From: Candidatus Woesearchaeota archaeon
Lineage (GTDB): Archaea; Nanobdellota; Nanobdellia; Pacearchaeales; GW2011-AR1
NCBI GenBank assembly: GCA_964623495.1
Contig: CAZUTV010000004.1
Span: 16,587-80,586, forward strand
DNA: 64,000 nucleotides
Direction: 5' to 3'
Shown here in pieces: positions 267 through 57,278 of the stretch. Position numbers and translations under genes: made by a program. The notes under the pieces are model-generated. The model was not told the DNA's origin, did not search any database, and saw only the letters and a list, made by a program, of their open reading frames with translations. Numbering within the stretch: the stretch's first letter is position 1; the number at the start of each line of letters is the position of its first letter.

Positions 267-410
267 ATGAAAGAACGGGTATCTGCAACAATTGACGAAT
301 CTACTTCTAGAATAATAGATGAAATGATGAAAAAAGGAAATTACAGAAATAAATCCCATGTCATAGAAGATGCAATTAAACTGCTGAAGGAGAAAAATGG
401 AAAAAAATAA
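267..410 (+). CDS. Ribbon-helix-helix (CopG/Arc-like) small DNA-binding protein, 47 aa (below ORF-track size cutoff)
   Basis: ATG 267 with GAGG 4 nt upstream and TAA at 408-410. Translation MKERVSATIDESTSRIIDEMMKKGNYRNKSHVIEDAIKLLKEKNGKK shows a strand-helix-helix layout. The 3' end overlaps the next CDS start (397) by 14 nt. Confidence 0.6.
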   Translation: MKERVSATIDESTSRIIDEMMKKGNYRNKSHVIEDAIKLLKEKNGKK

Positions 411-1233
411 TAAAAAAGGAACTCGCGCCAGCACTCGTTCTTGGATTACCTCGTGCAAGCGCTCGCAAGTAACAATCTTCATTATTGTGGGAATTTTAAT
501 TGTGGCTGCTGTTTTACTATTCTTATTTTTAAGAAACAAAACAGGGCCCACTGGTGGAGGGCCTGAAGAACAGCCTCAGCCAGAATCTTACCTAGAAACC
601 TGCATGAAAGAAGATGTCTTTGAGGCAATTGACTTAATTTCAATGCAGGGGGGATACAGAAATCCTAGTTTTTACAAAGAATATCAATTTACCGGAGAGC
701 CAGGATTTACAAATATAGCCTATCTCTGTTATACTCCAAATTATTATTCTAGGTGTATAAATCAAAATCCTGTATTTATGACTCACTTAAAAAATGAGCT
801 GGCTGCAGAAATTAACGGCACAGTTAGAGCTTGCTGGAATAAGTTTGGGCAGAGTTTGGAAACGGCAGGGTATGTTGTTGAGGGATTATACCAAGGATTT
901 AATCTTAGTTTTACCCAAACAAAAGCAATAATAGACATTAGAGGACAGTTAACAATGACAAAGAATAATGAAACGACAATAGAAAAAGATATCAAAGTGA
1001 ATATTCCAACAGCATACTATAAAATAGGAGATCTTGTCAATACAATAGTCGGACAGGAGGCATTACATTGCAGTTTTCAAAGTCTTGGGTACATGGTGCT
1101 TCATCCCGGCATTTGGAGGATTAACGAAACCAAAACAAGCGATAGTATTAAGATATATACAATAGAACATAAGAAAACTAAAGAAAGGTTCAGATTTGCT
1201 ATAAGGGGGTGTGTGATACCTCCTGGATTTTAA
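397..1233 (+). CDS. Prepilin-like (class III signal peptide-like) secreted protein, family A; paralog of 5742..6509
   Basis: 278-aa ORF. N-terminus ...KRSQVTIFIIVGILIVAAVLLFL (basic, small residue, Q, hydrophobic helix). Shares ETCMKED../YLCYT..YY..C and the C-terminal PPGF/PPGY motif with the 255-aa ORF. Confidence 0.6.
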   Translation: MEKNNKKGTRASTRSWITSCKRSQVTIFIIVGILIVAAVLLFLFLRNKTGPTGGGPEEQPQPESYLETCMKEDVFEAIDLISMQGGYRNPSFYKEYQFTGEPGFTNIAYLCYTPNYYSRCINQNPVFMTHLKNELAAEINGTVRACWNKFGQSLETAGYVVEGLYQGFNLSFTQTKAIIDIRGQLTMTKNNETTIEKDIKVNIPTAYYKIGDLVNTIVGQEALHCSFQSLGYMVLHPGIWRINETKTSDSIKIYTIEHKKTKERFRFAIRGCVIPPGF

Positions 1234-1234
1234 A

Positions 1235-4200
1235 ATGAAAAAAAGAGTAAAAAAACAAATAAGCCTGTTTTTATCAGCAATAGCAATTATTCAAATCTTG
1301 CTATTAATTAATGCTAACGTGGCTGAGAGTTATTTAGTAAGCAAGACTGAGGAGGTTATTGAAAAAGCCCAGGTTACAGCCAAGAAGAATGATGAGGCAA
1401 GAAGCCTAATAGACAAGGGAGTTAACTTCTTAATAGGATTTTTAAGCATAAAGCAAATAGGGGTTGTTTCTGCGCAAAATATTCAAGAGTGGTGCTGTCC
1501 TGAAATGAAACCTGTTGGAACACAAAACGGAGCAAGATGTGTTCCGCTTTCTTCTGAAAGAGCAAGCGAGTGTATAGATCCTATCCCAACAAAGTGCGAA
1601 AATACTCCGGTGTGTGATACAGGATGTTGTATTCAGCCAACAGGTCAGTGCAGTCTTAATTCTCCAAAAGGAAATTGTACTGCTGGAGGGGGAGTTTGGA
1701 AGGAAGACGAAACCTGCTCTATTCAAGAGTGCAGTCTCGGATGCTGCACTGCAACACACGAGTTAACAACAAGAAAGCAATGCGAAGATTTATCTAGACA
1801 GGAAAATGTGGCCTTAAACTTTCTGGATTCTGTGACAGATGAGCCAACATGCATTGGTTTGCAGTTTAGCGGAATGCAGGGGGCTTGTGTATTTGAGGAT
1901 CAAAGCTGCCAGAGAATTCCCAACGAAGGGATAAGTGACGCACTTGAGTGTGTTAATCAGGGAGGAAAATTCAGCCAGGGAAAGCTATGCTCTCATCCAC
2001 TGCTTAATACAACTTGCACTAGGACAAATTACACTGGATGCGATCCTGCAGTAGTTCTTCCAGAAATCTACTGGTTTGATTCTTGTGGAAATAGGGAGAA
2101 TATTTACAATGCAAACAAAGCAACTAGCTGGAATAATGGAAACATACTTAGCAAAGACTCTAGCTGTGGTGCAGGGACAGGCTCTATAAACAGCCATACT
2201 TGCGGAAATTGCGATTCATTCTTAAACAGCATTTGCTCCCCTTCAACCGGAAGCAACAAGATTAATGACGGAAATTTTATCTGCAAGGATTTAAGGTGCC
2301 ACTATAAAGACCAGTGGAATCATAATGTAACTAAAGACAACGGAGAGAGCTGGTGTGTTTATGATGGAAGCATTGGAAGCGTTAAAAGTCCGTGGAGCCA
2401 TGGACTGAACTTTTCAAGCGATGTTGTCGGAAGCAGGCACTGGAAGTGGTCGTGTGTTGACGGTGAGATAATAAAAGAAGGTTGCATGGACGGAAGGACC
2501 GAGATATGTGCAGAGTCAAGAGTTGATGTTGGTGGAGGAAATAAATTTAGCGTTGCCCAATGCATTGTTAATGAGGGAAAAATGTGTCTTGACTTAAATC
2601 CTCTGCAGTATGTGGAAGATGACAAGCTAATTGACAACACAACACTTATACAAGCGTGCAACGACAATAAATTCTGCGCAATCAAAAAAGTTGATGTTGA
2701 CAAATACTTTAAATTTGATCTTTGCATGCCAAGATATCCTGTTGCCTCAAACTTAAGCGATGGGGTAGATGATGCTGTATGCAAGATGTGGGAGTTCAAA
2801 TGCACGATTGTGGAAGGGAAAAAATTCTTGGGATCTTGGGATTGCAAGGAAAATTGCGGATGCAAGACTGAGAAATTTGTTCAGCAGCTTAACGACGTAT
2901 GTGCTTCATGGAGTGATTGCGGCTCTAAGGTCAATATTGTTGGAAAAGGGACAGATAATTATGTTGTTGAGGGAAAAAACCAGTTTGGCATGGTGAGCGA
3001 GTGCACTTCAAGCGGAATATGCGGGCAGGAGTGCAGGAGAAGCGCACATTGTTTCAATTATACAGGAAGTTTGGCAAAGGGAAACGATATAGCTGGATTT
3101 GGAAACGATATTATAGGGACTAATCCAGGAGAGCATGTAATAAATAAAACTCAGGGAGTATGGTCGTGCCAAAATGTAACTGAGTGGAGCCAAATACAAA
3201 ATAGATACGTTACGCAGCATCTTAACTGCCAAGGAAATAATCCTCTAGAATTGGCTCCTGCAGAAGTAGAGTATTTAATACAAGAATGCAAGACAGTAGG
3301 CACCTGCAATGGAAATAATTTCCAAATGAAACCTCAGATAAAAAGCAAGTTCTCGTGGCAGAATTATACAAAATATGCAAGGCCTGTAAACGGACAGTAT
3401 GCTGAAGTCCCAAATTATGATGAATATATGGCTACAATTCTTGGCGGAGGAGAAATCCCGGCTGTGGGAACTCCTGCATATGGAGAATTCCAAGAAAAGA
3501 CAGTAGACTACCTTTCAGGAATTCCTGGCGCGATTGGATCAACCATAAGTCTTTTGACTTTAACAACCGGAGCTTCAATGTGGGCTTCAGTCACATGGTC
3601 AGCTAGATACGCGGCCACAAAAGTAGGTGCTGCAGCACCTACAGCCCATTTTACAACCCTGGGAACAATTGCGGTTGCGGCAGCTGCCTTCGCTATTGGA
3701 ACATGGGTTGGGGGAAAAATTGCTCAGTCTTTAGGATATACTGGAACATGGGGGACATTACTAGCTTTGTCTTTCGGAGCTGCCTTTGCAGGACTAGCAA
3801 TACTTTTAGTTCCTGGAATTGCTAACTCCTGGAATCCTGTTGGGTGGGTTTTGCTTATTGTTGCATTTATAGGGAGTGTTTTGACTTTCTTGTTTGGAAC
3901 AAGACATAGAGAAAGAGAGGCAACATTTACATGCATGCCTTGGGAAGCTCCTTATGGGGGAGATGATTGTTCAAAGTGCAATGACAATCCAGACAAGCCT
4001 TGCACAAGATACAGATGCGAGAGTTTAGGTCAAGCGTGTGTTTACGTAGGAGATAACATGGAAAATGCGCCGTGTGATGCAATTGAGGATGACGGCAAAC
4101 CTCCAGTCATAACTCCCTTAAAAATTGATTCCGGATATAAGTTTGTAAATACAACCGCAAATAGCACTAAGGTAAGAAGAACAAATAATGCCTGTCTACC

Positions 4201-5752
4201 TACATTCACAGAGGTGGATGTTACTTTCAAGACAGACGAGTATGCAAGATGCAACTGGACAGCTGAAACTACATGGCCAGGAGTAGATATGCCTAGTCCG
4301 TATCCTATAGAAGGTAATGGTTTCATATTTAACCACACTTTCAGAATTAAAATGCCTTCAATCGATATGCTAAATGCAAACGATGTTTCTGGGGACATAA
4401 GGAAGTGGTTTGGAAACATGAATTTCAACATTGCATGCACTGACTTCTATGGGAGAACAAGTTATCCTAAATATAAGGTTAATTTCTGCATTGAAGAAGA
4501 AGATAAAACTCCAGTAAACCACGCATTTACAATATTTGTTCCAAGAACAGACACAAAACTGAAAATAGGAACAACAAGTGTTCCTATAAAAATGCTGATT
4601 AACAAGCCAGCAGAATGTAAATATGATACTAAACCAGGAACAGACTATAGTTCAATGCCTTATACGATGGATTGCAAAACAGGACTTGGTGATTTGGATT
4701 ATGCTTTAGGAGGAAGCGGGTGGCCGTGCACAACAAACATGACTGGTTTAGTAACAGGAGATAATAGAATTTATGTCAGATGCAAGGCACAACCTTATTT
4801 CCCTGCATCCAGACAGAATGAAAGAAGAACTAATGGACAGGATAAAGAATATAACTTAATTGTCACAGACAGCCAGCTTGTAATAGATGACGTCAGTTTC
4901 ACAGCAGATGATATGACTATTGGTGCAGGAGGCAAATTTGTCCTCGGAGGTGCTAATTGTCTTAGTGTAAATATGCAGGTTAGGACAAGTGAAGGGGCTG
5001 ATAACGGAATTGCGACATGCAAATGGGGAATAACAAAAACAGGAAGCAGATGGGACTTCCCTCCTGACGACGGAGTAACTCACAACCAGGTCCTTAACCC
5101 AAGATGCGTGGGAACACATGTAAATTACATTGACTGCTTTGATGGTGCTGGAAATACCGCCTCTGTTGTTGCGAACTTTACTCTTGAAATTGACACTCAG
5201 CCCCCAAGAATAATCAATAATGAAACAATTGATGGAAACATGAGGCTTGAAACAGATGAACTGGCTAATTGCTATTATAATAATTATGCCTGTAGAACAA
5301 ATCCTGCAAATCAGACACCTATAACCCAAGAGAACTTTGAAAGTTTTGAAACAGAGCACTGGATTTACGATTTAAGTCCAAGAAGAGATTATTATGTTAC
5401 ATGTAAGGATGTTTACAATCATACAAACCCAAGTTGCGCAATAATAATAAAAGCAACAGAAGTAGATGATGGAACTCCTCCGATAGCAACAAGAGTTTAC
5501 AACGATGCAGGAAACTTAAAGCTTATAACAAATGAGGCTGCAAAATGTTCATACAGCACAGCAAACTGCAACTTCAATATCAGCAACGGAATATGGCTGG
5601 ATACAGCAGGCGACCAGGAATGGTCTACAGAGCACTTTACTGAGTGGAATCCTAAACAAACCTACCACATAAAATGCAGAGATGACTGGGGAAACACCAA
5701 CCAACCAGAATGTCTTATAATAGTAAAGCCGGAAGAACTTTATGATGATTAA
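1235..5752 (+). CDS. Giant cysteine-rich surface/membrane protein (1505 aa): N-terminal anchor, Cys-rich domain, Gly/Ala/Thr-rich multi-helix membrane segment, then tandem C-terminal domains
   Basis: Uninterrupted 4.5-kb ORF starting 1 nt after the upstream stop. The N-half is colinear with the 570-aa ORF (WFDSCGNRENIYNANK vs FVDSCGNVANIYDANK). The C-half is colinear with the 753-aa ORF (FTCMPWEAPYGGDDCSKCN vs FECKPWQAPLGGKDCEKCN). Many N-x-S/T sequons. Confidence 0.8.
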   Translation: MKKRVKKQISLFLSAIAIIQILLLINANVAESYLVSKTEEVIEKAQVTAKKNDEARSLIDKGVNFLIGFLSIKQIGVVSAQNIQEWCCPEMKPVGTQNGARCVPLSSERASECIDPIPTKCENTPVCDTGCCIQPTGQCSLNSPKGNCTAGGGVWKEDETCSIQECSLGCCTATHELTTRKQCEDLSRQENVALNFLDSVTDEPTCIGLQFSGMQGACVFEDQSCQRIPNEGISDALECVNQGGKFSQGKLCSHPLLNTTCTRTNYTGCDPAVVLPEIYWFDSCGNRENIYNANKATSWNNGNILSKDSSCGAGTGSINSHTCGNCDSFLNSICSPSTGSNKINDGNFICKDLRCHYKDQWNHNVTKDNGESWCVYDGSIGSVKSPWSHGLNFSSDVVGSRHWKWSCVDGEIIKEGCMDGRTEICAESRVDVGGGNKFSVAQCIVNEGKMCLDLNPLQYVEDDKLIDNTTLIQACNDNKFCAIKKVDVDKYFKFDLCMPRYPVASNLSDGVDDAVCKMWEFKCTIVEGKKFLGSWDCKENCGCKTEKFVQQLNDVCASWSDCGSKVNIVGKGTDNYVVEGKNQFGMVSECTSSGICGQECRRSAHCFNYTGSLAKGNDIAGFGNDIIGTNPGEHVINKTQGVWSCQNVTEWSQIQNRYVTQHLNCQGNNPLELAPAEVEYLIQECKTVGTCNGNNFQMKPQIKSKFSWQNYTKYARPVNGQYAEVPNYDEYMATILGGGEIPAVGTPAYGEFQEKTVDYLSGIPGAIGSTISLLTLTTGASMWASVTWSARYAATKVGAAAPTAHFTTLGTIAVAAAAFAIGTWVGGKIAQSLGYTGTWGTLLALSFGAAFAGLAILLVPGIANSWNPVGWVLLIVAFIGSVLTFLFGTRHREREATFTCMPWEAPYGGDDCSKCNDNPDKPCTRYRCESLGQACVYVGDNMENAPCDAIEDDGKPPVITPLKIDSGYKFVNTTANSTKVRRTNNACLPTFTEVDVTFKTDEYARCNWTAETTWPGVDMPSPYPIEGNGFIFNHTFRIKMPSIDMLNANDVSGDIRKWFGNMNFNIACTDFYGRTSYPKYKVNFCIEEEDKTPVNHAFTIFVPRTDTKLKIGTTSVPIKMLINKPAECKYDTKPGTDYSSMPYTMDCKTGLGDLDYALGGSGWPCTTNMTGLVTGDNRIYVRCKAQPYFPASRQNERRTNGQDKEYNLIVTDSQLVIDDVSFTADDMTIGAGGKFVLGGANCLSVNMQVRTSEGADNGIATCKWGITKTGSRWDFPPDDGVTHNQVLNPRCVGTHVNYIDCFDGAGNTASVVANFTLEIDTQPPRIINNETIDGNMRLETDELANCYYNNYACRTNPANQTPITQENFESFETEHWIYDLSPRRDYYVTCKDVYNHTNPSCAIIIKATEVDDGTPPIATRVYNDAGNLKLITNEAAKCSYSTANCNFNISNGIWLDTAGDQEWSTEHFTEWNPKQTYHIKCRDDWGNTNQPECLIIVKPEELYDD

Positions 5753-6509
5753 GAAAAAGAATTTTCGTGGTCAAGTCACCCTATTTGTAATTATAGGTCT
5801 AGTGATAGTTGCAATTGGAATTTTAATTTATTTGTTATATCCAAAAATAAGAGGGCCTCTTGGATTTGATGAAGAAAATCCTTATCAAACAATCCAAACC
5901 TGCCTAGAAGATAATGTTAGAGAAGTGGTTGAAAAGCTTTCTTTAAGCGGAGGAAGTGTTGAACCAGAACATTACATTGTTTATAACGGAGATAACATAG
6001 AATATCTATGTTATACTAACGAGTATTACAAAACCTGTGTTGTCCAGCAGCCTTTGCTAAAGAGGCATATTGAGCTGGAAATACAAACGCAGATAAATGA
6101 AAGAGTCAGAAAATGCTTTTTGGATTTAGAGAGCAATTTTAAGAAAAAAGGCTATACTGTTAATCTAAGGACTGGGGGTGTTGAGGCAGAGCTTCTCCCA
6201 AAGAGGGTTGTTCTTAATTTTAATCATTCGTTAACTTTAACAAAAGAGGGCTCAGATAATTACGATAAGTTTAGTGTTGTCGTGAACAATAATCTTTATG
6301 AATTAATAAGCATAGCAAATAGTATTATCCAGTGGGAAGCAAGATACGGAGATGCGGAAACTACAACTTATATGACTTACTACAGAGACTTGAAAGTTGA
6401 AAAGAAGCTGCAGCAAGAGGGAACAACGATTTACATTTTAACTGACAGAAACAATGAAAATAAATTCCAGTTTGCATCAAGGAGTGTTGCATGGCCTCCA
6501 GGGTATTAG
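5742..6509 (+). CDS. Prepilin-like secreted protein, family A (paralog of 397..1233)
   Basis: 255 aa. N-terminus KKNFRGQVTLFVIIGLVIVAIGILIYLL. NIEYLCYTNEYYKTCVVQQP matches NIAYLCYTPNYYSRCINQNP, and the C-terminus ends WPPGY. Overlaps the upstream stop by 11 nt. Confidence 0.65.
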   Translation: MMIKKKNFRGQVTLFVIIGLVIVAIGILIYLLYPKIRGPLGFDEENPYQTIQTCLEDNVREVVEKLSLSGGSVEPEHYIVYNGDNIEYLCYTNEYYKTCVVQQPLLKRHIELEIQTQINERVRKCFLDLESNFKKKGYTVNLRTGGVEAELLPKRVVLNFNHSLTLTKEGSDNYDKFSVVVNNNLYELISIANSIIQWEARYGDAETTTYMTYYRDLKVEKKLQQEGTTIYILTDRNNENKFQFASRSVAWPPGY

Positions 6510-8203
6510 ATAAAATGGAAAGTAATTTAGAATTAACTATAAGAAATAACGCAATAACAATCAGAGGGGTTAATAATAAAAATCATCTAATGGTTTTAGC
6601 ATTCACAATCTTCCTGCTAGCCAACGTTCTTCCATCAATTAATTCTGTCGGTGAAATCTCTTATTGCTGTGAGAAAACAAAAAGCGGAGCGTGGTGCCAG
6701 AATGTAGATGATAGATCTAAATGCGCTACTGGCGGAGGATTAAATGCTCCTGCTCCAACATCCTGCCAGGCAACTTCATACTGTAAACTTGGATGTTGTT
6801 ATGACAGCCGGGAAGGAACCTGCATGCCAAACACCCCTAAAAAAGTCTGCAACGATAACCAAGGGGTATGGGATGCTAATGCTGATTGTGAAATCCCCCA
6901 ATGCAATCTTGGATGCTGTGTTGTCGGAGACCAGGCAGCATTTGTAACACTCACGAATTGCAAAAAACTTTCTGCAGATTATGGCTTAGAAACAGATTTT
7001 AGATCAGATATAACTAATGAAGAGGAATGCATTGCAAGCGTTGCTTCTGATGTTTTAGGTGCTTGCGTATTTGAAGAAGACTTTCAAAAAACCTGCCAAA
7101 TGTTAACCCAAAAAGAATGCAGAGACTTAGATTCAACAAACAACGGGGCAACTTTTTATGCCGACACCCTATGCTCTTCTGATAGGCTTGGGACAAACTG
7201 CGGACCGACTGAAAAAACAACCTGTGTAGAAGGAAGAGACGAGGTTTTCTTTGTAGACAGCTGCGGCAATGTTGCAAACATTTACGATGCTAATAAAATA
7301 AATAACAAAGAATATTGGGGCACATTATATGCAAGAAGCGAGAGCTGCGGATTTGAGGTAGACAATGCTGGCTCTGTAAGCTGTGGAAACTGCGATTATT
7401 ATTCTGGAAGCACATGCAAGCCTTATGATAGAGGCGTAGATAACGCAAGACCAAAATATGGGAACAATATTTGCAGGGATTTGGATTGCACTTATAAGGG
7501 AAAGACTTATCAGCATGGAGAGACCTGGTGCGAGTATAATTCTGAAGATCGTGATGCTCCTGGAAGCGAATCTTTTAGATTCGTATGTTACAATAATGAG
7601 GTAACTGTAGAAAAGTGTGGAAATTACAGGCAGGAAATCTGCATTCAATCAGAAACAAATGGATTCAAGTTTGCAAAATGCGCGGCAAACATGTGGCAGG
7701 AATGTGTCTCACAGAACAACTCACAAGATTGCGAGAATGAAGATCAAAGAGATTGCATATGGGTGAAAAGCGGAGAGATAAAGGCAGATATTAATCTTGA
7801 AAAAGAAGGGTTTGATGACTGGAAAGAATTTTACGATAGATTCAAAGACAAAACAATTCCTGACAAATTCCTTCAGTATGTTTGCGTTCCTAAATTCACT
7901 CCTGGGTTTGACTTAACAAGCGATGAAAATGATGCCCAGGGAATATGCTCAATGGCAAGCACCCAATGTGTAGCGAAATTTGAAAAAGGGTTATTTGGAG
8001 GGAAATACAAGTGTATTTCAAATTGTCATTGCTGCGTTAATGACAAAGATCATGAAGGGTGTTTAAGCCAGGTCAGAGGAACACAGAACAACTGGGAAGG
8101 AGACAAGGAAAGCCTATGTGGTTATTTGGGTGATTGTGGAGACAAGAAAAACTTCATAGGCACTTTAGGATATGCAAACAGAAGCCAGTTAATAGTAACT
8201 TAA
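6491..8203 (+). CDS. Cysteine-rich secreted protein (570 aa), stand-alone homolog of the N-half of the 1505-aa protein
   Basis: Signal-anchor HLMVLAFTIFLLANVLPSINS. Motifs shared with 1235..5752: repeated (L/T)GCC, CGNCDYYSGSTC, NNICRDLDCTYK, GETWCEYN. The start could instead be the ATG at 6515. Confidence 0.75.
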   Translation: MASRVLDKMESNLELTIRNNAITIRGVNNKNHLMVLAFTIFLLANVLPSINSVGEISYCCEKTKSGAWCQNVDDRSKCATGGGLNAPAPTSCQATSYCKLGCCYDSREGTCMPNTPKKVCNDNQGVWDANADCEIPQCNLGCCVVGDQAAFVTLTNCKKLSADYGLETDFRSDITNEEECIASVASDVLGACVFEEDFQKTCQMLTQKECRDLDSTNNGATFYADTLCSSDRLGTNCGPTEKTTCVEGRDEVFFVDSCGNVANIYDANKINNKEYWGTLYARSESCGFEVDNAGSVSCGNCDYYSGSTCKPYDRGVDNARPKYGNNICRDLDCTYKGKTYQHGETWCEYNSEDRDAPGSESFRFVCYNNEVTVEKCGNYRQEICIQSETNGFKFAKCAANMWQECVSQNNSQDCENEDQRDCIWVKSGEIKADINLEKEGFDDWKEFYDRFKDKTIPDKFLQYVCVPKFTPGFDLTSDENDAQGICSMASTQCVAKFEKGLFGGKYKCISNCHCCVNDKDHEGCLSQVRGTQNNWEGDKESLCGYLGDCGDKKNFIGTLGYANRSQLIVT

Positions 8204-8243
8204 AAATAGTAACATTTAAATATAATAAAGACAGAAAAAGAAC

Positions 8244-8948
8244 ATGAGAAATTTAAGGGATTTGATAAGTAAAGGAAGAAACACACTAGCTGCTTTAGGG
8301 GTTGTTGGAGCACTGGCTTTTGGATATCAAAATGCTTCTGCGCAATCAGTAAGCGATCCTGCCTTACTTTCAATATTCAAAACCTTTGGATTAAGCAGCG
8401 AGAGCCAAAGTGACAGACAACTGGCAGAGTACTTTTTGGGTTGGGGAATGATGGATAGAGAGATGGAAATAGCAAAAGCCGGAAGAAACCAGATAATCAT
8501 TAACAATCAAATATATACTCTTCCTAATGGATATGTTTTTGATAATTCACAAAATCCAGAGGATTTTCGAATAAGGCCTCCTAAAAGGGAATTCTTTACT
8601 TTTGGCAGAATTAATGATAGAAACAGGGATCGTCTATTAGCTAGCGATGAAATGGAAGACATAAAGGACCTCTTCACAACTGATGAAAGTATAAATATTT
8701 GTTTTAATTATGAAACCGGAGAAGATGTAAAAGGGAAAAAATTCTATTTAAGGGTCTTTGATGAGAATGGAAGACAAACCTATCCAACATCATCTCTGAT
8801 TAATCCCTACCCGGATGCATATTGGTTGGCTTCTGGAGGAGCAAATATCGAAAATCCGGGAAGATATACTTTTGAAGTTTACGATGAAAATGATCAACTA
8901 TTAATGTCAAAAACAATCAGAGTGGTTGCTGCAGAAAAAAAAGAATAA
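8244..8948 (+). CDS. Secreted hypothetical protein (234 aa) inserted in module B
   Basis: Sec-type signal LAALGVVGALAFGYQNASAQS. No counterpart in the fused 1505-aa protein and no family recognised. Confidence 0.6.
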   Translation: MRNLRDLISKGRNTLAALGVVGALAFGYQNASAQSVSDPALLSIFKTFGLSSESQSDRQLAEYFLGWGMMDREMEIAKAGRNQIIINNQIYTLPNGYVFDNSQNPEDFRIRPPKREFFTFGRINDRNRDRLLASDEMEDIKDLFTTDESINICFNYETGEDVKGKKFYLRVFDENGRQTYPTSSLINPYPDAYWLASGGANIENPGRYTFEVYDENDQLLMSKTIRVVAAEKKE

Positions 8949-8954
8949 AGAAAA

Positions 8955-11216
8955 ATGTTAAAAAAAGGGGATAAAAAAAAGGTGAAAGGATTAGCACTAG
9001 CTGAAATCCTAATCCTAATTTTAGGAACAATTGCAATTGGCTATGCTTTGGGAAGTGAGGTTAAGTTTGTAAGCTCACAGGGACCAGGAGAAACTGATGA
9101 TATAAGTGAAACTGGAGAAGGAAGTGTTTCTAAATCAGCTGATTCAAAAAAAGATGAGGGGTGGTCACCGGGATTAACCTATCTTCCTCTTGCAACCGGA
9201 GGTTTGGATTTTTTAAAAGGGGGATTATGGGGGCGTGGATCAAGTTCAAGCAGTTCTTCTTCAAGTTCATCTTCATCGGGTTCAGGTGGCGGAACTCCTC
9301 CACCTCCAGACATAGGTCCTGGATCTTTAAACTGGGGACAGGCAGGGAAGCAAATACTTGGAAATGCGGCTCGGGCCGTTGGAATTTATTTTGGTATTCA
9401 GGCACTTGGAAAAAGTTTGTGGAAAGATGAGTCAGGAGTCAATGCATTAAAGTATGCTGTATCAATAGGATTTTTCACAGGAACAACACTTAAAACTCTT
9501 TTATATGATAAAGCATTTTTTGGAAAGAAAATAGGGGAATTTTTGGCTGGAGATAAAATTCTTGGCATTAGTGGCTTTGGGTGGATTGGAATAGCGACAA
9601 CAGTTGTTATTTTCCTTTCACTTTACAAGAAGTCAGATGAAAAAACAATGGTCTTTGAATGCAAACCGTGGCAGGCTCCTTTGGGAGGAAAAGACTGCGA
9701 GAAATGCAACAAGCAAGGTCTTATTCCCTGCACCGAATACCAATGCAAATCTTTAGGACAGGCATGCAATATGACAAATACAGATACTGGCGAAGCAATG
9801 TGCGTCTGGCAAAACAAAAGAGATTCAACTCCTCCTGTAATACAGCCTTGGAGAGAGGTGTTGGCAGATTACTTCTCATACAGGCCAGACAACACTTTAA
9901 GCCTAAAAGACAAAGGAGTTTACATCAAATATAATGACCCAAAACACCAAACAAGAAACGGATGCATTCCTGCATTTATGCCTTTCACTTTTGGGATAAC
10001 TACAGATGAACCCTCGAGCTGTAAGATTGATGATGTGAGAGGGACAACTTTCAATAACATGAAGTGGGATTTGGGTAGCAGTTCAACATTCAAGTACAAT
10101 CACAGCCAGACAATAAGTCTTCCAAGCCCAGAATCTTTAGAAGCAGAGAATATAACTTTGAAAAACGGCGGAAATTACGAATTATATGTAAGGTGTATTG
10201 ATGTTAATGGAAATTTAAAACCAGATTCTCCATCAGGGACTTTTGTGTTCAAATATTGCGTGGATCCTGGGCCAGACACAATGGCTCCTCAGATACTTGG
10301 AACAAGCATACCAACAGGAATGCCAATTGCATACAACCAATCAACCCTTGATTTAGAGGTCTATATTAATGAGCCTGCAGACTGCAAGTGGTCTAGGGAT
10401 AGGGACATGACTTTTGCCAGCATGGAAAACACAATGACCTGCTCCAGAAGTGTTTTTGAAATGAACGCCCAAATGGTTTACAAGTGCTCGACAACATTAA
10501 ACGCTTTAAGGAATAGGATGGAAAATGTCTTCTACTTCAGATGCAAGGACAAACCTTCTGCAGCTGAAAAAGACAGATATGAAATGGCTAGAGGATATAG
10601 ATACGTGGTTATTGGAACTCAACCATTGATAATTGACAAAGTCGGACCTAACGGAACAATAAAAGGATCCACTGATCCTGCACTAATAACTCTAAATGCG
10701 CAGACTTCTGCAGGATACAAAGAAGGAGATGCAACATGCTACTATAGTGAGTCTTGCTGGGATGCAAATGGAAAAAGAGACGAGTACACTATGTTTTACT
10801 ATCCAAGCGGGGAAAGCTCTTACAATCATACGCAGAGCGGATTAGCAGTAAGCGCCGGTACATACAGGTGCAATATTTTATGCAGAGATCTTGGAGGAAA
10901 CACAGACACCAAATCATTCGAGTACAGGGTTGAAATAGACAAAACTCCTCCAAAAGTTGTAAGGATTTACAAGGAAGATAACTTCTTAAAAGTCATAATC
11001 AACGAGAAAGGGCAGTGCGTTTATGGAACTCAGAACTGCAATTACTTATTTGAAGACGGAATATCAATGAATACCTTGGATGACTTAGGATTCTACACTG
11101 ACTGGGACACAACAAAAACTTTCTACATAAGATGCAAAGATGAGTATGGAATCCAGCCTAACTCAAACCAATGCTCGATAGTTGTAAGGCCTGCTGAAAT
11201 TTTTAATGATGGATGA
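8955..11216 (+). CDS. Membrane/surface protein (753 aa), stand-alone homolog of the C-half of the 1505-aa protein
   Basis: N-terminal TM, Ser13 and Gly/Pro linker, then hydrophobic helices. These are followed by FECKPWQAPLGGKDCEKCNKQGLIPCTEYQCKSLGQAC and repeated domains delimited by (T)PP-x-(I/V). The C-terminus FYIRCKDEYG..CSIVVRPAEIFNDG matches YHIKCRDDWG..CLIIVKPEELYDD. Confidence 0.75.
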   Translation: MLKKGDKKKVKGLALAEILILILGTIAIGYALGSEVKFVSSQGPGETDDISETGEGSVSKSADSKKDEGWSPGLTYLPLATGGLDFLKGGLWGRGSSSSSSSSSSSSSGSGGGTPPPPDIGPGSLNWGQAGKQILGNAARAVGIYFGIQALGKSLWKDESGVNALKYAVSIGFFTGTTLKTLLYDKAFFGKKIGEFLAGDKILGISGFGWIGIATTVVIFLSLYKKSDEKTMVFECKPWQAPLGGKDCEKCNKQGLIPCTEYQCKSLGQACNMTNTDTGEAMCVWQNKRDSTPPVIQPWREVLADYFSYRPDNTLSLKDKGVYIKYNDPKHQTRNGCIPAFMPFTFGITTDEPSSCKIDDVRGTTFNNMKWDLGSSSTFKYNHSQTISLPSPESLEAENITLKNGGNYELYVRCIDVNGNLKPDSPSGTFVFKYCVDPGPDTMAPQILGTSIPTGMPIAYNQSTLDLEVYINEPADCKWSRDRDMTFASMENTMTCSRSVFEMNAQMVYKCSTTLNALRNRMENVFYFRCKDKPSAAEKDRYEMARGYRYVVIGTQPLIIDKVGPNGTIKGSTDPALITLNAQTSAGYKEGDATCYYSESCWDANGKRDEYTMFYYPSGESSYNHTQSGLAVSAGTYRCNILCRDLGGNTDTKSFEYRVEIDKTPPKVVRIYKEDNFLKVIINEKGQCVYGTQNCNYLFEDGISMNTLDDLGFYTDWDTTKTFYIRCKDEYGIQPNSNQCSIVVRPAEIFNDG

Positions 11217-11225
11217 AATGAATAA

Positions 11226-11233
11226 TTTATAAA
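11226..11233 (+). promoter_or_regulatory. TATA-box candidate (TTTATAAA), 21 nt before ATG 11255 (leaderless-type spacing)
   Basis: Exact TTTATAAA. The same box at the same 21-27 nt spacing recurs upstream of other first-in-unit genes in this window. Confidence 0.4.
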
Positions 11234-11254
11234 TTCTAATTCTTTATTTGTTTG

Positions 11255-11779
11255 ATGAAAAGAGGAACTCGCGATCCTGCTCACCCATGGATTATATCAC
11301 AAAATCGCTCGGCAATGGAATTATCTTTTGGGATGATTTTTTCAATCATACTTATTATTAGTTTTCTTGCATTTGCAATTTATGCTATACTTACCTTTAT
11401 CAAGACAAGTGACACGGCCAAGATTGCAAGTTTCAGAAAAGACTTTCAAGAGGACATTGACAAGATGTGGAGGGCAACACAAGGAAGCCAAAAAGTCAGC
11501 TATAGTCTTCCCGGCAAAATCAACGAAGTATGCATTGTAAGAAATTACGGAGTTAATTTGCTTTTCTATCCGTTAAATTCTATCGGAGACATTGGCCCTT
11601 TAAATCTAAGCCATATCAATCTAACAACTGCCGTAAAGGCTGGCCGCCAGGGATATAAAGTAAGAAATATCGACGGGGAGAACAGGTACATGGTTTGCTT
11701 CAACAATACAAGGGATAAAGTCAGCATGGTGATAAAAAAGAATTTTGGGGAAAATCTAGTAAATATAAGTGCAAGTTAA
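11255..11779 (+). CDS. Small prepilin-like protein (174 aa)
   Basis: N-terminus MKRGTRDP...NRSAMELSFGMIFSIILIISFLAFAIYAIL resembles archaeal class III signals (compare KGQIAMELGIL-type pilins). I prefer the ATG at 11255 to the TTG at 11252. Confidence 0.6.
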   Translation: MKRGTRDPAHPWIISQNRSAMELSFGMIFSIILIISFLAFAIYAILTFIKTSDTAKIASFRKDFQEDIDKMWRATQGSQKVSYSLPGKINEVCIVRNYGVNLLFYPLNSIGDIGPLNLSHINLTTAVKAGRQGYKVRNIDGENRYMVCFNNTRDKVSMVIKKNFGENLVNISAS

Positions 11780-11780
11780 G

Positions 11781-12734
11781 ATGATTAAAGGAAAAGGCGG
11801 TTTCATGGAAAATTCATTTACCTGGATTTTTGCACTTGTTGTTGGGGGATTTATTCTTTTTCTTGCAATCTTTTTTGCAATAAGACTTACCGGAACAGAA
11901 GAAACGCAAATAGATGTTGTAACAAGCAAAGACATAGGAATCTTAACAAATCCCTTGGAAATCGGTTTTGAAAGCGGGAAGACAACTTTTTTAAGCTTGC
12001 CGACAGAGACAAGGATTTATGGCAATTGCGATAATTCTGGAGAATTTGGAACGCAAAAAATAAGAATATCCCAAAAAAGCCTTGGGGAATGGTCTGAGAC
12101 TCCATTGAATATTTCATTCAAGAATAAATACTTGTTCTCAGAGAGCCCTGTAGAAGGAAGAAGTTTCTATTTATTTTCAAAGCCTTTCGAATTTCCATTT
12201 AAGGTCGCTGACTTGATTTATTTAATTCCAAAAAACAAGTTTTATTGCTTTGTTCTTTCTTCAAACAATCCCTTACATAAAGACATTTCTATGGAAATAA
12301 GAAATCTTAAACTGGATAATGTTAAGAATGTTACTAATGCCAACAATTGCCCTCCTGGAAGCCAAAAAGTCTGCTTCACAAGCACTTGCAATATAACAGT
12401 AAATCTTCAGCAGGAAAAAGTCATAAAGTCTGGAGAAAATCTTTCTTTTTCTGGAAGCACATTAATGTATGCCGCAATTTTTTCAGATCCAGATGTTTAC
12501 AAATGTCAGCTAAAAAGGTTAATGCAAAGAACAGACAATTTAGCTGATTTGTATGAAAAGAAAATTATTTATGTAGGCCAAAAAGGATGCAATGCTAACT
12601 TCAATTTAGCTCTTTTGTCAAGCAGGGCAGATAGCTATAGCAAAGAAAACACCCAGGAAATAAGATCAATTTATACTCAGGTTGTCAAGCAAATAAATGC
12701 CTCAAATGAGGCTGCTGGCTGCAAAATATGGTAA
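11781..12734 (+). CDS. Prepilin-like protein (317 aa)
   Basis: MIKGKGGFMENSFTWIFALVVGGFILFLAIFF. ATG 11781 lies 1 nt after the upstream TAA (the track start at 11769 is GTG). Confidence 0.6.
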   Translation: MIKGKGGFMENSFTWIFALVVGGFILFLAIFFAIRLTGTEETQIDVVTSKDIGILTNPLEIGFESGKTTFLSLPTETRIYGNCDNSGEFGTQKIRISQKSLGEWSETPLNISFKNKYLFSESPVEGRSFYLFSKPFEFPFKVADLIYLIPKNKFYCFVLSSNNPLHKDISMEIRNLKLDNVKNVTNANNCPPGSQKVCFTSTCNITVNLQQEKVIKSGENLSFSGSTLMYAAIFSDPDVYKCQLKRLMQRTDNLADLYEKKIIYVGQKGCNANFNLALLSSRADSYSKENTQEIRSIYTQVVKQINASNEAAGCKIW

Positions 12735-12735
12735 A

Positions 12736-13260
12736 ATGAAAGACAAATCAAGACATGCGCAAATGAAAATCCAGCAAACAGCATTCATGCTTTTAGCTGT
12801 GACTCTGCTTTTTGTGCTTGTAGGATTGGCTGTTTTGGGTTTTAAGCTTGCAGGAATGAAAGGCACAGCATCTGGTCTTGAAGAAGAAAATGCTAAACTC
12901 TTAGTGTCTAAGTTAGCAAATTCTCCAGAATTTGCATGCGGAGATGCTTTTCCAGGAAGAATTAGTTGTATTGATGCAGATAAAGTAATGATGCTAAAAA
13001 GCCAGGAAAGCAAATATTCTGGATTCTGGGGAGTTGCAGATATTGAAATAAGAAAAATCTACCCTAAAAGATCAGGAACAGTTGTTTGCACTACTTCAAA
13101 CTATCCCAACTGCAACCTTATTGAAATAAAATCGACAAAGATAGCAGGAACTTACTATTCAAATTTCATATCCTTATGCAGAAAAGAACTAATAGGAGGG
13201 ACAACTTATGACAGATGCGATCTTGCAAGATTACTTGTAAGTTATGAGAAAAAGACGTAA
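12736..13260 (+). CDS. Small prepilin-like protein (174 aa)
   Basis: MKDKSRHAQMKIQQTAFMLLAVTLLFVLVGLAVLGF. ATG 12736 lies 1 nt after the upstream TAA. Confidence 0.6.
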   Translation: MKDKSRHAQMKIQQTAFMLLAVTLLFVLVGLAVLGFKLAGMKGTASGLEEENAKLLVSKLANSPEFACGDAFPGRISCIDADKVMMLKSQESKYSGFWGVADIEIRKIYPKRSGTVVCTTSNYPNCNLIEIKSTKIAGTYYSNFISLCRKELIGGTTYDRCDLARLLVSYEKKT

Positions 13261-13801
13261 AATGATTAAAAGAATAAAAAATAAAATAGGGCAAGAACAA
13301 AAATCAAAGATTTTAGTAGCTAAGCCTAAAAAGGCCCAGGAGGAAATGGTTGGATTTGCTTTAATTGTTATAATTGTAGCAGTTATATTGCTTATCTTTC
13401 TTAGCCTATCTCTATCTAAGAGAGGTTCTTCAAATATACAAGGCTACGAAGCAGAGAACTTCTTAAAAACCAGCTTGCAGTACACAACAAACTGCGAGTT
13501 TTATAGGGAAGGATATATCTCTTTAGAAACCCTTATCTTTAAGTGTTATGAAAACAAAACCTGTGTAAATGGGAACAATACTTGTGTAATTTTAGGTACT
13601 ACATTTAGAGAGATCTTGAACGAAAGCTGGAGAACAGGTAGTGATAAACCAGTACAGGGATATTCTTTAAACATAAGTATTAATGGGCAGCCATTTAAGG
13701 GGTTTAAAGAAGGCAATAAAACGCAAAACTCAAGGGGAACTACAATTTTAAGGGACAAGGGAGCATCTAGTGCAGAGATAAGCTTTAATGCTTACTATTA
13801 G
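13244..13801 (+). CDS. Small prepilin-like protein (185 aa)
   Basis: ...KPKKAQEEMVGFALIVIIVAVILLIFLSL. Overlaps the previous gene. Last gene of the co-directional cluster. Confidence 0.6.
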   Translation: MRKRRKMIKRIKNKIGQEQKSKILVAKPKKAQEEMVGFALIVIIVAVILLIFLSLSLSKRGSSNIQGYEAENFLKTSLQYTTNCEFYREGYISLETLIFKCYENKTCVNGNNTCVILGTTFREILNESWRTGSDKPVQGYSLNISINGQPFKGFKEGNKTQNSRGTTILRDKGASSAEISFNAYY

Positions 13802-14536: not shown

Positions 14537-17215
14537 ATGAGATTTAATTTTAAGAAAATCTCAGCACTTGCAACTAGTACACTATTAGTCGGAATGACAA
14601 TGGGAGTTGCTGCTGCAGCAAACTATCCTGCACCTTTCATACAAGGAAGCACAGCAGATGTGGCAATTGTATATGGTACAGGAACAGGGGTATCCATCAT
14701 AGATGGTGTCCAAGCAGGAAGCATTCAGGCAGACCTTCAATCCAGATTTATTGGAGACGGAGGAGATGATGATACTGTTACTGGAGAAACATATCCTTTA
14801 TTCACAGACACTTCAAAGGTGTACATGAATGACACTTTAACTATTAGATCTATCTTAACAGATCAAGAACTTGAGAATGTTCTTGCTGATAGCAAATTTG
14901 AAGGAAATGTTAATGCAGATGTAACTACTACCATTTATCTTGGAACAAATCCAAGAGTGGTTTATGGAAAACATCCCTCTACAGGGGATGATGATCCAAC
15001 AGTAGCTTTACAGCTAGGAAACTCTGCAACAAACTATGTCTATAATGCAACAGTTGGCTTTAACAAAGCTGTAAACCTTGCTCATACAGATTCAATTGGA
15101 TCAAAATTGAATCTATTCGGACAAGAATTTACTGTTGCTGCAGGAACCACAAACACTACTCTATACTTATTTAAGTCATCTCAAAAAGTAGACTTATCTA
15201 TTGGAGGGAGTAATCCTGCAGAACAACAAATAACTGTTGAAGGAAAAACATACACTGTTACATTAGTAGGAGCAACAGCTACCTCTGCAACTGTTAAAGT
15301 TACAGACAGCACAGGAGCTTCTGAAACAGATGAAATCAATGAAGATGCGTCAAAAAATCTTCAAGGACTTGAAGTAGCTGTAACACTTGCTGCATCAAGC
15401 GAAGCAACAAGCAGTGAATCGGCAACACTTCTCCTTGGCTCTAACAAGCTAAAACTTACTGATGGAGGAAATGTTGAAGTAGGTACTGATGAAGATAATA
15501 TAGAAAATACAAACTTTGTTATACCTGCTGGAGGTGGTTTTAACGCAACAACAGGATTTACTATTCAGGTATTTGAAGATGATTCTGAAAAAGATGCAAT
15601 TGTTGCAGGAGGAAGCTATATAGATCCTGTTTTTGGATCATTCAAAATTGACTTCCCAGCATTAAATATTGCAGATGACTCAACTTCAAGAGAAAACATT
15701 GTTGTTAAAGGAGTCGGAAACGACAAAGCAGCAGTAACATTAACAGACCATCAAGGATTTGAAAAAACTATTGACTGGTACTATAATGTATCGGCACTTC
15801 CAAGACTAGCAGATAGTGATGGAAGAAATATAGAAGTATTAGAAATGGCTGCTATAAACAAGTCAGGATATGTTGTTGTTGGTAATGAAGATGAAGGTTA
15901 TCTTCTAAAACTAATAACAGTTACAAACCAAACAGGCACTGACGATGATGAAGTAGTCTTCGAAGATGTCTTTAGTGGTGATGAGTACACTGCAACAATA
16001 AGTAGTACAGAAGGAAGCGGTACTATTAACATTGGAGGAAAAACTTACGATGTCACTTACGCAAAAGTGAGCGGACAAGACTCATACGCTGCAACTGTAA
16101 GATTAAACTACCCAGATAGTAGTACTGCAACAACTGACGCTGTAATATACCCAACAATTGAGACTGATAAAGGAGCAAAATTCTTCTTTTACGAGCCTCA
16201 GGCAATTACGCTAACAAACTGGAACGGTGCTTCAGGCATATTAGGTACTTTAAGATTCCCTGACGGAGACGGTTATGAAGATGTAACCATTACCTGGACT
16301 GGAAACAACACTATGGGACAGGTTGCTGGTGGAACAGTAAATGCATGGAATATTACTGCAGATGGAGTAACAGATCAAATCTGGAACTCTAGTGCATCTG
16401 TAGTTAATGTAACAATAGGAGTATTTACATATAGTATTTACGGTTCTGCAACTGCAAATGACTCAACTGTTTACTTACTTAACCCAGACAATAGTGCCCT
16501 AATAACAAACGGGGCTTTTATCCCTGCTGTTGGATTCTTTGAAGAACAAGATGACAGCACAAGCAAGCTCTACAATGGTGGAGTTGTGATAATGAGTGGT
16601 GCTGGAAGCAGTACAACGCCTGTAGGTGTAAGTGATGTTGCATTTACATGGGGAGCTGATGACTATTGGGACGATTTACAATTAGAAACCGATGAAGATC
16701 TATACAAAAGTATGGACTATTATGGAACTATTGTAACAACTGATAGATCAGATAGTGACTCTTATACTGCAACAATTAGCTATCCAGACTCACAAATTTA
16801 TCCTAAGTTATATGTGGGAGAAGTAGCTTCACAAATCACTACCGGAGGTGGAGGTGGAGGTGGAGGTTCACTTGGAAATGTACTAGTAAGAGATAGCGAA
16901 GTTAGCTCTGTAAACACAAAGAACTTGATCGTTGTTGGCGGAAGCTGCATTAATTCAGCTGCTGCTGCATTGGTTGGAGGATCTTACTGTGGAGAGCAAT
17001 GGACCACTGCAACCGGTATTGGCATGAACCAGTACATAATTAGAGGTTACACTGGAACAAGCTTAACTAGCAAGATGGCTTTACTTGTAGCAGGTTACAA
17101 TGTTGAAGACACTGTAAACGCTGCAACCTACTTGAAAACACAAGTAGTTGACACAAGCAAGCATTACAAGGGAACAACTGCAACAAGTGCTGAAGAGGTT
17201 GTAACCACAGCTTAA
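14537..17215 (+). CDS. Probable S-layer (surface-layer) protein, 892 aa
   Basis: Signal peptide ...LLVGMTMGVAAAANYPAPF. Thr/Ser/Asp/Gly-rich, with Cys confined to the C-terminal block. N-terminal ADVAIVYGTG..IDGVQAGSIQADL and C-terminal NLIVVGGSCINSAAAALVGG resemble methanococcal-type S-layer N/C domains. Strong GGAGGT RBS and a long structured leader. Confidence 0.6.
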   Translation: MRFNFKKISALATSTLLVGMTMGVAAAANYPAPFIQGSTADVAIVYGTGTGVSIIDGVQAGSIQADLQSRFIGDGGDDDTVTGETYPLFTDTSKVYMNDTLTIRSILTDQELENVLADSKFEGNVNADVTTTIYLGTNPRVVYGKHPSTGDDDPTVALQLGNSATNYVYNATVGFNKAVNLAHTDSIGSKLNLFGQEFTVAAGTTNTTLYLFKSSQKVDLSIGGSNPAEQQITVEGKTYTVTLVGATATSATVKVTDSTGASETDEINEDASKNLQGLEVAVTLAASSEATSSESATLLLGSNKLKLTDGGNVEVGTDEDNIENTNFVIPAGGGFNATTGFTIQVFEDDSEKDAIVAGGSYIDPVFGSFKIDFPALNIADDSTSRENIVVKGVGNDKAAVTLTDHQGFEKTIDWYYNVSALPRLADSDGRNIEVLEMAAINKSGYVVVGNEDEGYLLKLITVTNQTGTDDDEVVFEDVFSGDEYTATISSTEGSGTINIGGKTYDVTYAKVSGQDSYAATVRLNYPDSSTATTDAVIYPTIETDKGAKFFFYEPQAITLTNWNGASGILGTLRFPDGDGYEDVTITWTGNNTMGQVAGGTVNAWNITADGVTDQIWNSSASVVNVTIGVFTYSIYGSATANDSTVYLLNPDNSALITNGAFIPAVGFFEEQDDSTSKLYNGGVVIMSGAGSSTTPVGVSDVAFTWGADDYWDDLQLETDEDLYKSMDYYGTIVTTDRSDSDSYTATISYPDSQIYPKLYVGEVASQITTGGGGGGGGSLGNVLVRDSEVSSVNTKNLIVVGGSCINSAAAALVGGSYCGEQWTTATGIGMNQYIIRGYTGTSLTSKMALLVAGYNVEDTVNAATYLKTQVVDTSKHYKGTTATSAEEVVTTA
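16844..16867 (+). repeat. (GGAGGT)x4 microsatellite encoding a Gly8 linker
   Basis: Four exact tandem hexamers inside the S-layer ORF (protein TTGGGGGGGGSLG). Confidence 0.9.
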
Positions 17216-57196: not shown

Positions 57197-57211
57197 AATG
57201 ATAGCAATACG

Positions 57212-57278
57212 AACCTTTTGGAAAGGTTCCCAAACCAGATTATGCCATAAATAAACCTTTTAGAAAAAGGTTCCCAAA
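57212..57278 (+). repeat. Two tandem hairpin units: AACCTTT-TGG-AAAGGTT-CCCAAA and AACCTTTT-AGA-AAAAGGTT-CCCAAA
   Basis: Read directly from the sequence (57212-57234 and 57254-57278). Related to the hairpin at 25501-25521. Confidence 0.8.

Follow-up and report, generated by a model that had tools for sequence, protein, structure and literature searches.

The described systems closest to the one presented here are of four kinds: Rosetta-stone pairs, whose fused and separate states are orthologues found across genomes and invite the conclusion that the separate proteins interact; two-subunit surface glycoproteins, in which a soluble Cys-rich outer subunit is tethered, often by a disulfide, to an anchored stalk (retroviral surface-transmembrane, or SU-TM, proteins and integrin- or receptor-type ectodomains); surface adhesins composed of tandem immunoglobulin (Ig)-like domains; and archaeal type IV pilin-like proteins, including those of the non-filament Sulfolobus bindosome. 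We have analysed a stretch of 64,000 nucleotides (nt) of the archaeal contig CAZUTV010000004.1, called the window below, whose positions 397-13801 form one tight run of ten genes, with neighbours overlapping or at most 40 nt apart. The run contains a fused module A (A1 and A2), a split-module region (B1, B2, B3 and B4) and four small downstream genes (C175, C321, C187 and C185). The two modules are paralogous, and we suggest, with a probability of about 0.6, that their large proteins make up a disulfide-linked surface complex, possibly for attachment to a host.

An earlier note on this stretch, made from its letters, had claimed two paralogous modules, one fused and one split, and this claim holds, all six open reading frames (ORFs) being present where it had placed them. 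A1 (278 amino acids, aa) aligns end to end with B1 (255 aa) at 28% identity over 258 aa (BLASTP E-value 2e-38), through the NIAYLCYT/NIEYLCYT and IPPGF/WPPGY strings, and B2 matches the N-terminal half of A2 colinearly, at 29% identity between A2 aa 65-570 and B2 aa 41-557 (E 3e-51), through CGNCDSFLNSIC/CGNCDYYSGSTC and NFICKDLRCHYK/NNICRDLDCTYK. B4 was said to match the C-terminal half of A2 including the membrane segment, which is right for the C-half itself (A2 aa 828-1410 with B4 aa 166-749, 25% identity, E 3e-43) and for the membrane segment is secure only at the last transmembrane (TM) helix (A2 870-888, B4 206-224), the Gly-rich helices before it aligning weakly (hhalign probability 84%). 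A second match, of A2 1378-1505 with B4 602-752 (E 7e-19), points to an extra C-terminal domain in A2. Comparison of the family alignments (57 members for A2 and 71 for B4) gave a profile-profile probability of 100% at E 2e-121, with a match that runs colinearly from the last membrane helix on through the C-terminal end, and the similarity is therefore real homology and not a matter of Cys spacing; the pairwise alignments, too, are colinear over more than 500 aa and contain many non-Cys identities, which disposes of the objection that Cys spacing is all the modules share.

The split state is equally genuine. ORFs were called in 80 related loci (numbered with the prefix L) and assigned by phmmer (E 1e-5), and every one of the 53 loci with both B2 and B4, which come from independent assemblies, encodes them as two genes. 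A frameshifted or misassembled single gene, or a low-complexity artefact, is hardly conceivable in view of the colinear alignments and of separate, signal-bearing genes in 53 assemblies. Both modules are built from the same parts: an anchored alpha/beta protein of small size, an ectodomain that is rich in Cys and about 500 aa long, a membrane segment rich in Gly, a knot of seven Cys beside the membrane and a tandem Ig-like stalk.

The picture of A2 as a simple join of an N-half and a C-half had to be given up. As read from its sequence, A2 appears to start with a B4-type anchor, to continue with a B2-type ectodomain that opens with a signal-peptide-like relic, and to end with a B4-type membrane segment and stalk, so that the B2-like part is nested at the position that in B4 belongs to the variable linker. 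The A2 segment aligned to the B2 signal peptide (aa 65-80, ...SIKQIGVVSA) is internal. The anchors of A2 and B4 resemble each other with an hhalign probability of 95.7%, yet 5 of 100 column shuffles reach that score, which makes the support modest; the motif QI-x(9-16)-SY was found within the first 70 aa of 26 of the 57 A2 and 18 of the 71 B4 proteins, while the remaining cluster families lack it and one of 844 further ORFs has it. Most A2 orthologues, which measure about 1250 aa, lack an insertion (within aa 571-759; about 120 aa, 10 Cys) that together with an extra Ig-like domain makes the A2 of the window some 250 aa longer than is typical of its family. The Gly/Ala-rich region gave weak matches to glycine-zipper Pfam families (PF05433/PF13441, E 0.005-0.009) in 3 of 35 A2-family members. 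As in Rosetta-stone pairs, A2 covers two proteins of adjacent genes colinearly and over non-overlapping regions, and the same interaction logic can be applied to them. Unlike such pairs, both states coexist here as ancient paralogues in one operon; the join is nested, the B2-like part lying inside a B4-like frame behind an anchor whose motif is absent from B2, and not end to end; and the parts are extracytoplasmic, which means that each separate gene needs an export signal of its own.

The B2 orthologues have an ordinary cleavable signal peptide (e.g. ...LIGIASS/VGEVSYCC, a slash standing here and below for the predicted cut) and neither an anchor nor another hydrophobic segment, so mature B2 is predicted to be soluble and to require a tether. 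Of 63 B2 orthologues, 61 have an odd Cys count in the mature protein (43, 45 or 41, with 43 conserved Cys columns), and the count of B4 from the knot to its end is odd in 36 of 37 (21 or 23, the 21 conserved ones being seven in the knot plus seven Ig-like pairs), while in A2 the N-part is odd in 40 of 44 proteins, the C-part in 37 and both in 34. Since the totals shift by twos and parity is kept, each half probably has one unpaired Cys, and the simplest reading is that one disulfide joins the halves, between the chains in B2-B4 and within the chain in A2. The suggestion of the earlier note that the two halves act as one complex thus gains support from the cleavable signal of anchor-less B2, from the odd Cys of B2, of B4 and of each half of A2, and from the conserved adjacency of B2 and B4; what falls away is the plain N-half and C-half picture and the role assigned to B3.

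In the model that we propose, module A would carry the ectodomain within the stalk protein, between the N-terminal anchor and the membrane segment, as one chain, and in module B the ectodomain would be the separate secreted B2, with a floppy linker at the same position of B4. B2 would be exported by its own signal peptide and then held on B4 at the membrane-proximal knot, most probably through a disulfide to which either protein contributes its one unpaired Cys, whereby the one-chain arrangement of A2 would be rebuilt. B1 or A1, in which the four Cys make an even number, would join as a non-covalent partner, and the assembly would project from the cell surface and bind something outside, most plausibly a host cell. 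Such a predicted pair of an anchor-less, secreted, Cys-rich head and an anchored stalk, with one unpaired Cys each, is reminiscent of SU-TM-type glycoproteins; unlike in these, no kinship of sequence or fold is seen, two genes take the place of precursor cleavage, and the disulfide is predicted from Cys parity alone.

Several observations weigh against the model. Homodimers of B2 and of B4, or a Cys that stays free or binds a metal, would account for the odd Cys equally well. The membrane passes before the C-half are ambiguous, and four helices in B4 would put the Ig-like stalk into the cytoplasm; charge bias (positive-inside counts in both families) is neutral after the last helix and gives no topology signal, and the density of N-glycosylation sequons, with no clear enrichment anywhere, is uninformative on the side of the C-half. 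We would still place the stalk outside because its Cys are paired and its domains Ig-like. In L036 (10706-12708) B1-B2 is followed directly by C175, with no B4 and with A1-A2 kept upstream, hence B2 can persist without an adjacent B4, though that genome carries A2; the locus offers a natural test case for B2 working with an A2 stalk. Pfam, NCBIfam, PHROGs, PDB sequences and the folds in PDB and BFVD yielded nothing specific as to function, and the connection of the cluster with host contact is an indirect one.

Judging from the structure model, the C-half of B4 and A2 can be counted among the tandem-Ig surface proteins, a broad class, by its fold only. The AlphaFold2 model of B4, computed with the family alignment, has a mean predicted local distance difference test score (pLDDT) of 80.7, mostly above 90 over aa ~440-740, and contains in order a helix at 10-34, a disordered linker, the membrane helices, the Cys knot and beta-sandwich domains up to the C-terminus. 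Foldseek returned 516 matches to PDB at E <= 0.001, and the top ones listed are mostly tandem-Ig or multidomain beta-sandwich proteins, including titin, ICAM-5, DSCAM, desmoglein, the GhpA grappling hook and the HPI S-layer protein; a tandem beta-sandwich fold of B4 is predicted accordingly by the model and these matches. With the tandem-Ig adhesins (Big_3/Big_13, Y_Y_Y and DUF4625 proteins, GhpA, HPI S-layer, cadherin, ICAM) the C-half shares the string of beta-sandwiches, with Foldseek E down to 5e-13. It differs from them in that the target-normalised TM-scores reach at most 0.33 and the matches are generic, that all B4 and A2 matches to Ig-like Pfam families (Big_3_3, Big_13, Y_Y_Y, DUF4625) stay below the cut-off (Y_Y_Y, for instance, at 22.6 against 26.6), and that nothing in them corresponds to the 7-Cys knot, to the Gly-rich membrane segment or to the partner proteins. 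Four B4 orthologues (P0016, P0073, P0109 and P0113) have a LysM domain at aa 44-102, within the linker, which argues that the linker is extracellular and can accept inserted domains; the B4 of the window has no LysM above the Pfam cut-off.

B3, taken earlier for a component of the split, does lack a counterpart in module A, as had been claimed (best E against A2 0.2). At phmmer E 1e-5 no other locus has a counterpart of it between B2 and B4, and L005, L016, L018 and L053 have only very distant secreted ORFs between B2 and B4. The two genes overlap or lie within 50 nt of each other in 31 of the 53 loci and are more than 400 nt apart in 19, the gap being filled with small ORFs for secreted or lipoprotein-like products, with cassettes of nucleotidyltransferase/HEPN-like and RelE-like type and, in L010, with 5.4 kb of unrelated genes. 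Some secreted gap ORFs are distantly akin to each other and very weakly to B3, and B3-like ORFs occur also elsewhere in or near the cluster. With no counterpart between B2 and B4 in other loci and such assorted cargo in the gap, B3 is best seen as an accessory insert at an insertion-prone junction. Its single Cys makes an odd count too. In L014 (12359-14880) the 5' end of B4 (the anchor, about 50 aa) is duplicated on either side of an inserted block with a nucleotidyltransferase-like ORF, which looks like a target duplication caused by insertion into the B2-B4 junction. Small toxin-antitoxin-like or nucleotidyltransferase/HEPN-like cassettes recur in the B1-B2 and B2-B4 gaps (Table 1).

The paired modules are an ancient arrangement across Pacearchaeota and not a local event. 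In a scan with one genome per species, B1 relatives were found in at least 337 Pacearchaeota/Nanoarchaeota species genomes. Proteins of B4 type (660-970 aa) exceed 300 in number and those of A2 type (about 1150-1450 aa) exceed 400, and the two types often share a contig. The order B1-B2-B4-C175-C321-C187-C185, usually followed by an orthologue of the secreted protein D892, recurs in most loci that are long enough; besides L036, which has no B4, the departures are L003, L013, L019 and L058, where no cluster genes are seen past B2. Among 49 loci with enough upstream sequence, the fused module stands directly upstream of B1 in no copy in 19, in one copy in 26 and in two in 4; tandem pairs are exemplified by L079 2-9948, L020 2305-9891 and L003 3736-13840, and both fused copies of L079 score nearer to B2/B4 than to A2. 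As PCNA adjoins A1 where module A is present and B1 where it is absent, the layout can be written PCNA-[A1-A2]n-B1-B2-B4-..., with module A as the variable part. Identities in the same 13 genomes are 45.6% for A1 and 38.3% for A2 against 56.7%, 52.5% and 45.5% for B1, B2 and B4. Module B is a constant, slowly evolving core, and module A a faster-evolving extra copy present 0 to 2 times.

Trees of the halves, named in the earlier note as a means to tell fusion from fission, answered one part of that question. Neighbour-joining (NJ) trees of both halves have one branch that parts all fused from all split forms (40 of 40 bootstraps for the C-half), and a single event is therefore sufficient; on its direction the signals conflict. 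Midpoint rooting puts the root of both trees among the fused forms, and this, with the fused copies lying near the split clade (L079, L023 and L020, at a support of just 9 of 40), suggests a fused ancestor. A split ancestor is suggested instead by module B being universal and slower to evolve, by the signal-peptide-like relic of A2, and by a B1+B2 species-proxy tree, where genomes that lack module A are mostly basal. We lean slightly towards fusion. Because of the nested layout, neither direction can be achieved simply by losing or gaining a stop codon.

B1 is the most conserved protein of the cluster, with orthologues at 57-69% identity and an invariant Q11. Its structure model is confident (pLDDT 85.8, predicted template-modelling score 0.75) and shows an anchor helix (9-32), split by a disordered stretch (34-43) from a globular part of two alpha/beta lobes. 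Foldseek found no fold match to the model in PDB at E <= 0.001, with neither YceG nor a pilin among the hits listed; against the viral structures of BFVD the best TM-score was 0.2, which is meaningless. In a profile search of a library of 1.84 billion proteins the B1/A1 superfamily amounted to 4817 clusters at 50% identity, roughly 3400 of them remote (E between 1e-10 and 1e-3), and the members among those listed all stand alone, at about 250-330 aa, and supplied no outgroup context.

As to the setting, the window also encodes a PACE-CTERM putative S-layer protein, an archaeal SecY, ribosomal proteins, FtsZ and an archaeal oligosaccharyl transferase, and these, together with homologues that all come from such metagenome-assembled genomes, assign it to a DPANN archaeon of the Pacearchaeota/Nanoarchaeota group. 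Each of the ten products of the run has a signal peptide or an N-terminal membrane helix, so all ten genes are predicted to encode secreted or membrane proteins. No family in Pfam, NCBIfam or PHROGs reaches its threshold with any of the ten, PDB sequences gave no match to A2, to B1 or to the B1, A2 and B4 family profiles, and a search of the literature found no description of the cluster; it is a widely conserved, uncharacterised set of surface proteins that matches no described family or system. A small ribbon-helix-helix (RHH) gene of CopG-like type overlaps the start of A1; tblastn found homologues in L002, L014, L036 and L058, situated between PCNA and A1 there and in a contig of the Joint Genome Institute (JGI), and this gene may regulate the cluster. 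D892 has 2 Cys only, matches no family, follows the cluster in most related loci as a conserved neighbour and is possibly an envelope or S-layer protein. Right after the cluster, on the opposite strand (13798-14151, -), lies a 117-aa gene, winged-helix-like in appearance by eye only, whose counterparts in related loci have Pfam PF25212 (HVO_A0114). The PACE-CTERM protein (19762-21441, -; NCBIfam NF033506, E 1e-117) ends in a C-terminal membrane anchor and marks the lineage as Pacearchaeota, and a set of glycosylation genes occupies 53399-63700.

Table 1. Features of the window and gap cassettes of related loci; signal, membrane, disorder and domain assignments are predictions, and a slash marks a predicted cleavage site
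Feature	Position	Strand	Description
RHH gene	267..410	+	47 aa, CopG-like; overlaps A1 start; in L001, L002 and the JGI contig the gene as called has Pfam RHH_1
A1	397..1233	+	278 aa; small partner of the fused module, B1 paralogue; N-terminal anchor KRS/QVTIF and alpha/beta ectodomain
A2	1235..5752	+	1505 aa, 80 Cys; fused-module protein
A2 aa 1-34	1235..1336	+	N-terminal signal anchor, B4 type (QI-x-LL...A-x-SY)
A2 aa 65-570	1427..2944	+	Cys-rich ectodomain, B2 homologue; opens with signal-peptide-like relic aa 65-80 (FLIGFLSIKQIGVVSA)
A2 aa 571-759	2945..3511	+	no B2, B3 or B4 counterpart; Cys-containing insertion (about 120 aa), then conserved SW..Y..Y..PV.GQ motif
A2 aa 760-888	3512..3898	+	Gly/Ala-rich membrane region: glycine-zipper-like hairpin and last TM helix
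A2 aa 898-950	3926..4084	+	membrane-proximal 7-Cys knot (C.PW.AP.GG.DC.KCN...PC..Y.C.SLGQAC)
A2 aa 951-1505	4085..5749	+	tandem Ig-like beta-sandwich domains, B4 stalk homologue
A2 aa 1328-1419	5216..5491	+	extra Ig-like domain, copy of the last domain; absent from B4 and the A2 family consensus
B1	5742..6509	+	255 aa; small partner of the split module; anchor RG/QVTLF; two alpha/beta lobes; 4 invariant Cys; invariant E199
B2	6491..8203	+	570 aa, 47 Cys; Cys-rich ectodomain protein
B3	8244..8948	+	234 aa, one Cys; secreted; lineage-specific accessory insert at the B2-B4 junction
B4	8955..11216	+	753 aa, 23 Cys; membrane-anchored stalk protein
B4 aa 1-34	8955..9056	+	N-terminal signal anchor (KVKG/LALAEILILILG...)
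B4 aa 35-126	9057..9332	+	disordered Ser/Gly-rich linker, predicted extracellular; highly variable in orthologues; pLDDT below 50
B4 aa 127-224	9333..9626	+	membrane region: helices 127-155, 159-185, 207-223
B4 aa 236-290	9660..9824	+	membrane-proximal 7-Cys knot (C236, 248, 251, 259, 264, 271, 283); candidate site of the unpaired Cys
B4 aa 291-753	9825..11213	+	tandem Ig-like beta-sandwich domains, 1-2 conserved Cys pairs each
C175	11252..11779	+	small, N-terminally anchored; conserved cluster member
C321	11769..12734	+	small, N-terminally anchored; conserved cluster member
C187	12697..13260	+	small, N-terminally anchored (..AQ/MKIQQ..); conserved cluster member
C185	13244..13801	+	small, N-terminally anchored (KKAQ/EEMVGF); last gene of the tight run
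D892	14537..17215	+	secreted, 892 aa; signal peptide ..AAA/ANYPAPF; context, outside the modules
Oligosaccharyl transferase	53399-56194		archaeal STT3/AglB-like; glycosylation set
GT4	56198-57193		glycosylation set
FemAB-like GNAT	58963-60024	-	glycosylation set
PMT_2-type transferase	61057-62637	-	glycosylation set
DUF354	62723-63697		glycosylation set
Gap cassettes	L003 15297-15659; L037 12842-13473; L012 8972-9226; L066 5693-5995; L079 13779-16903		in B1-B2 and B2-B4 gaps of related loci

What such a complex is for can be weighed from several sides. Pacearchaeota have been described as strongly host-attached organisms of minimal metabolism, and type IV pili systems as missing in DPANN genomes (bioRxiv 10.1101/2020.05.14.094862), from which a function in host attachment becomes plausible; a recognition role directed outwards would suit the LysM-bearing linkers, the fast-evolving and copy-variable module A and the proneness of the junction to insertions. 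One may go further and take the whole cluster (B1, a disulfide-linked B2-B4 and the four small anchored proteins) for a Pacearchaeota-specific host-attachment apparatus that needs no type IV filament machine, with A1-A2 and the variable B4 linker setting host specificity, a possibility that we consider tentative and, in this full form, doubtful. A housekeeping role is unlikely in our view and still deserves attention: the cluster would serve to anchor or order the S-layer or cell envelope, or have a part in the growth or division of the envelope, and module A would be a variable spare copy. The fixed core-genome position of module B next to PCNA in every related locus, the high conservation of B1, the large secreted neighbour D892 with its own conservation, and the presence of the S-layer protein and the N-glycosylation set in the window all suit such a role, and nothing contradicts it directly; the copy-variable, fast module A, the variable B4 linker and the insertion-prone junction suit an outward, diversifying role better.

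Another reading, which we hold to be quite unlikely, sees A1, B1, B4, C175, C321, C187 and C185 as prepilin-like proteins cut by a class III peptidase and assembled into a short fibre or pseudopilus, the small four being a minor-pilin-like tip set and B2/B4 and A2 tip adhesins. By inspection of the orthologues, these seven proteins do share class III-like N-termini with archaeal type IV pilin-like proteins, that is, a short basic stretch, a [KR][GA]/Q-like site at which cleavage is predicted, and a hydrophobic helix: K[KR][GA]/QVTIF in A1/B1, where Q11 of B1 is invariant, KKAQ/MKIQQ in C187, KKAQ/EEMVGF in C185, KKG/YLEISF in C321, [KR][GA].M.LSFGMIF in C175 and KG/.A.S[EQ]I in B4. Moreover, four small anchored proteins beside large adhesin-like ones recall the combination of minor pilins with PilY1 known from type IV pili and type II secretion systems. 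The machinery is what one misses, since neither the approximately 50 larger ORFs of the window nor the called genes within 10 kb in four related loci include an assembly ATPase, a platform protein or a prepilin peptidase. The bioRxiv study cited above and a 2026 preprint, in which type IV filament (TFF) systems occur in only some DPANN, likewise speak against this reading. The B1 model, with its helix parted from the globular domain by disorder and no pilin among the PDB matches listed, hardly looks pilin-like, and the further membrane helices of B4 are not a pilin feature. Enzymatic action seems very improbable. It would make A1/B1 lytic transglycosylases of MltG/YceG type, cutting a glycan wall to which the large proteins would target them as subunits, and it draws on weak B1 matches to Pfam YceG (PF02618, E 0.007) and TIGR00247 MltG (E 0.016), on one B1 orthologue annotated YceG by JGI, and on the stretch around the invariant E199 of B1, NSIIQWEARYGD, which we take to resemble the catalytic region of MltG. 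These matches score 16.3 bits against a Pfam cut-off of 32.4 and 14.3 against 103.4 for TIGR00247, just 4 of 40 family members give a match at E < 0.1, and the B1/A1 family profile finds no MltG among PDB sequences; as the B1 model has no fold relative in PDB or BFVD, we have discarded the idea.

We thus return to the disulfide-linked surface complex. Pacearchaeota are abundant, uncultured, ultra-small archaea of minimal metabolism, thought to live attached to other cells, and to our knowledge no attachment machinery is known for them. The cluster holds a fixed place in the genomes of hundreds of species and consists of surface proteins only. Should its function prove to be that of an ordinary envelope structure, a clean nested fusion/fission pair in exported proteins would still be at hand. 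The fused paralogue A2, the anchor-less B2 and the odd Cys together make a concrete and testable model, in which a disulfide would fix a soluble, Cys-rich head to a stalk in the membrane, and the proteins of the cluster may be taken as candidates for studies of host contact, for metaproteomics and for cryo-electron tomography.

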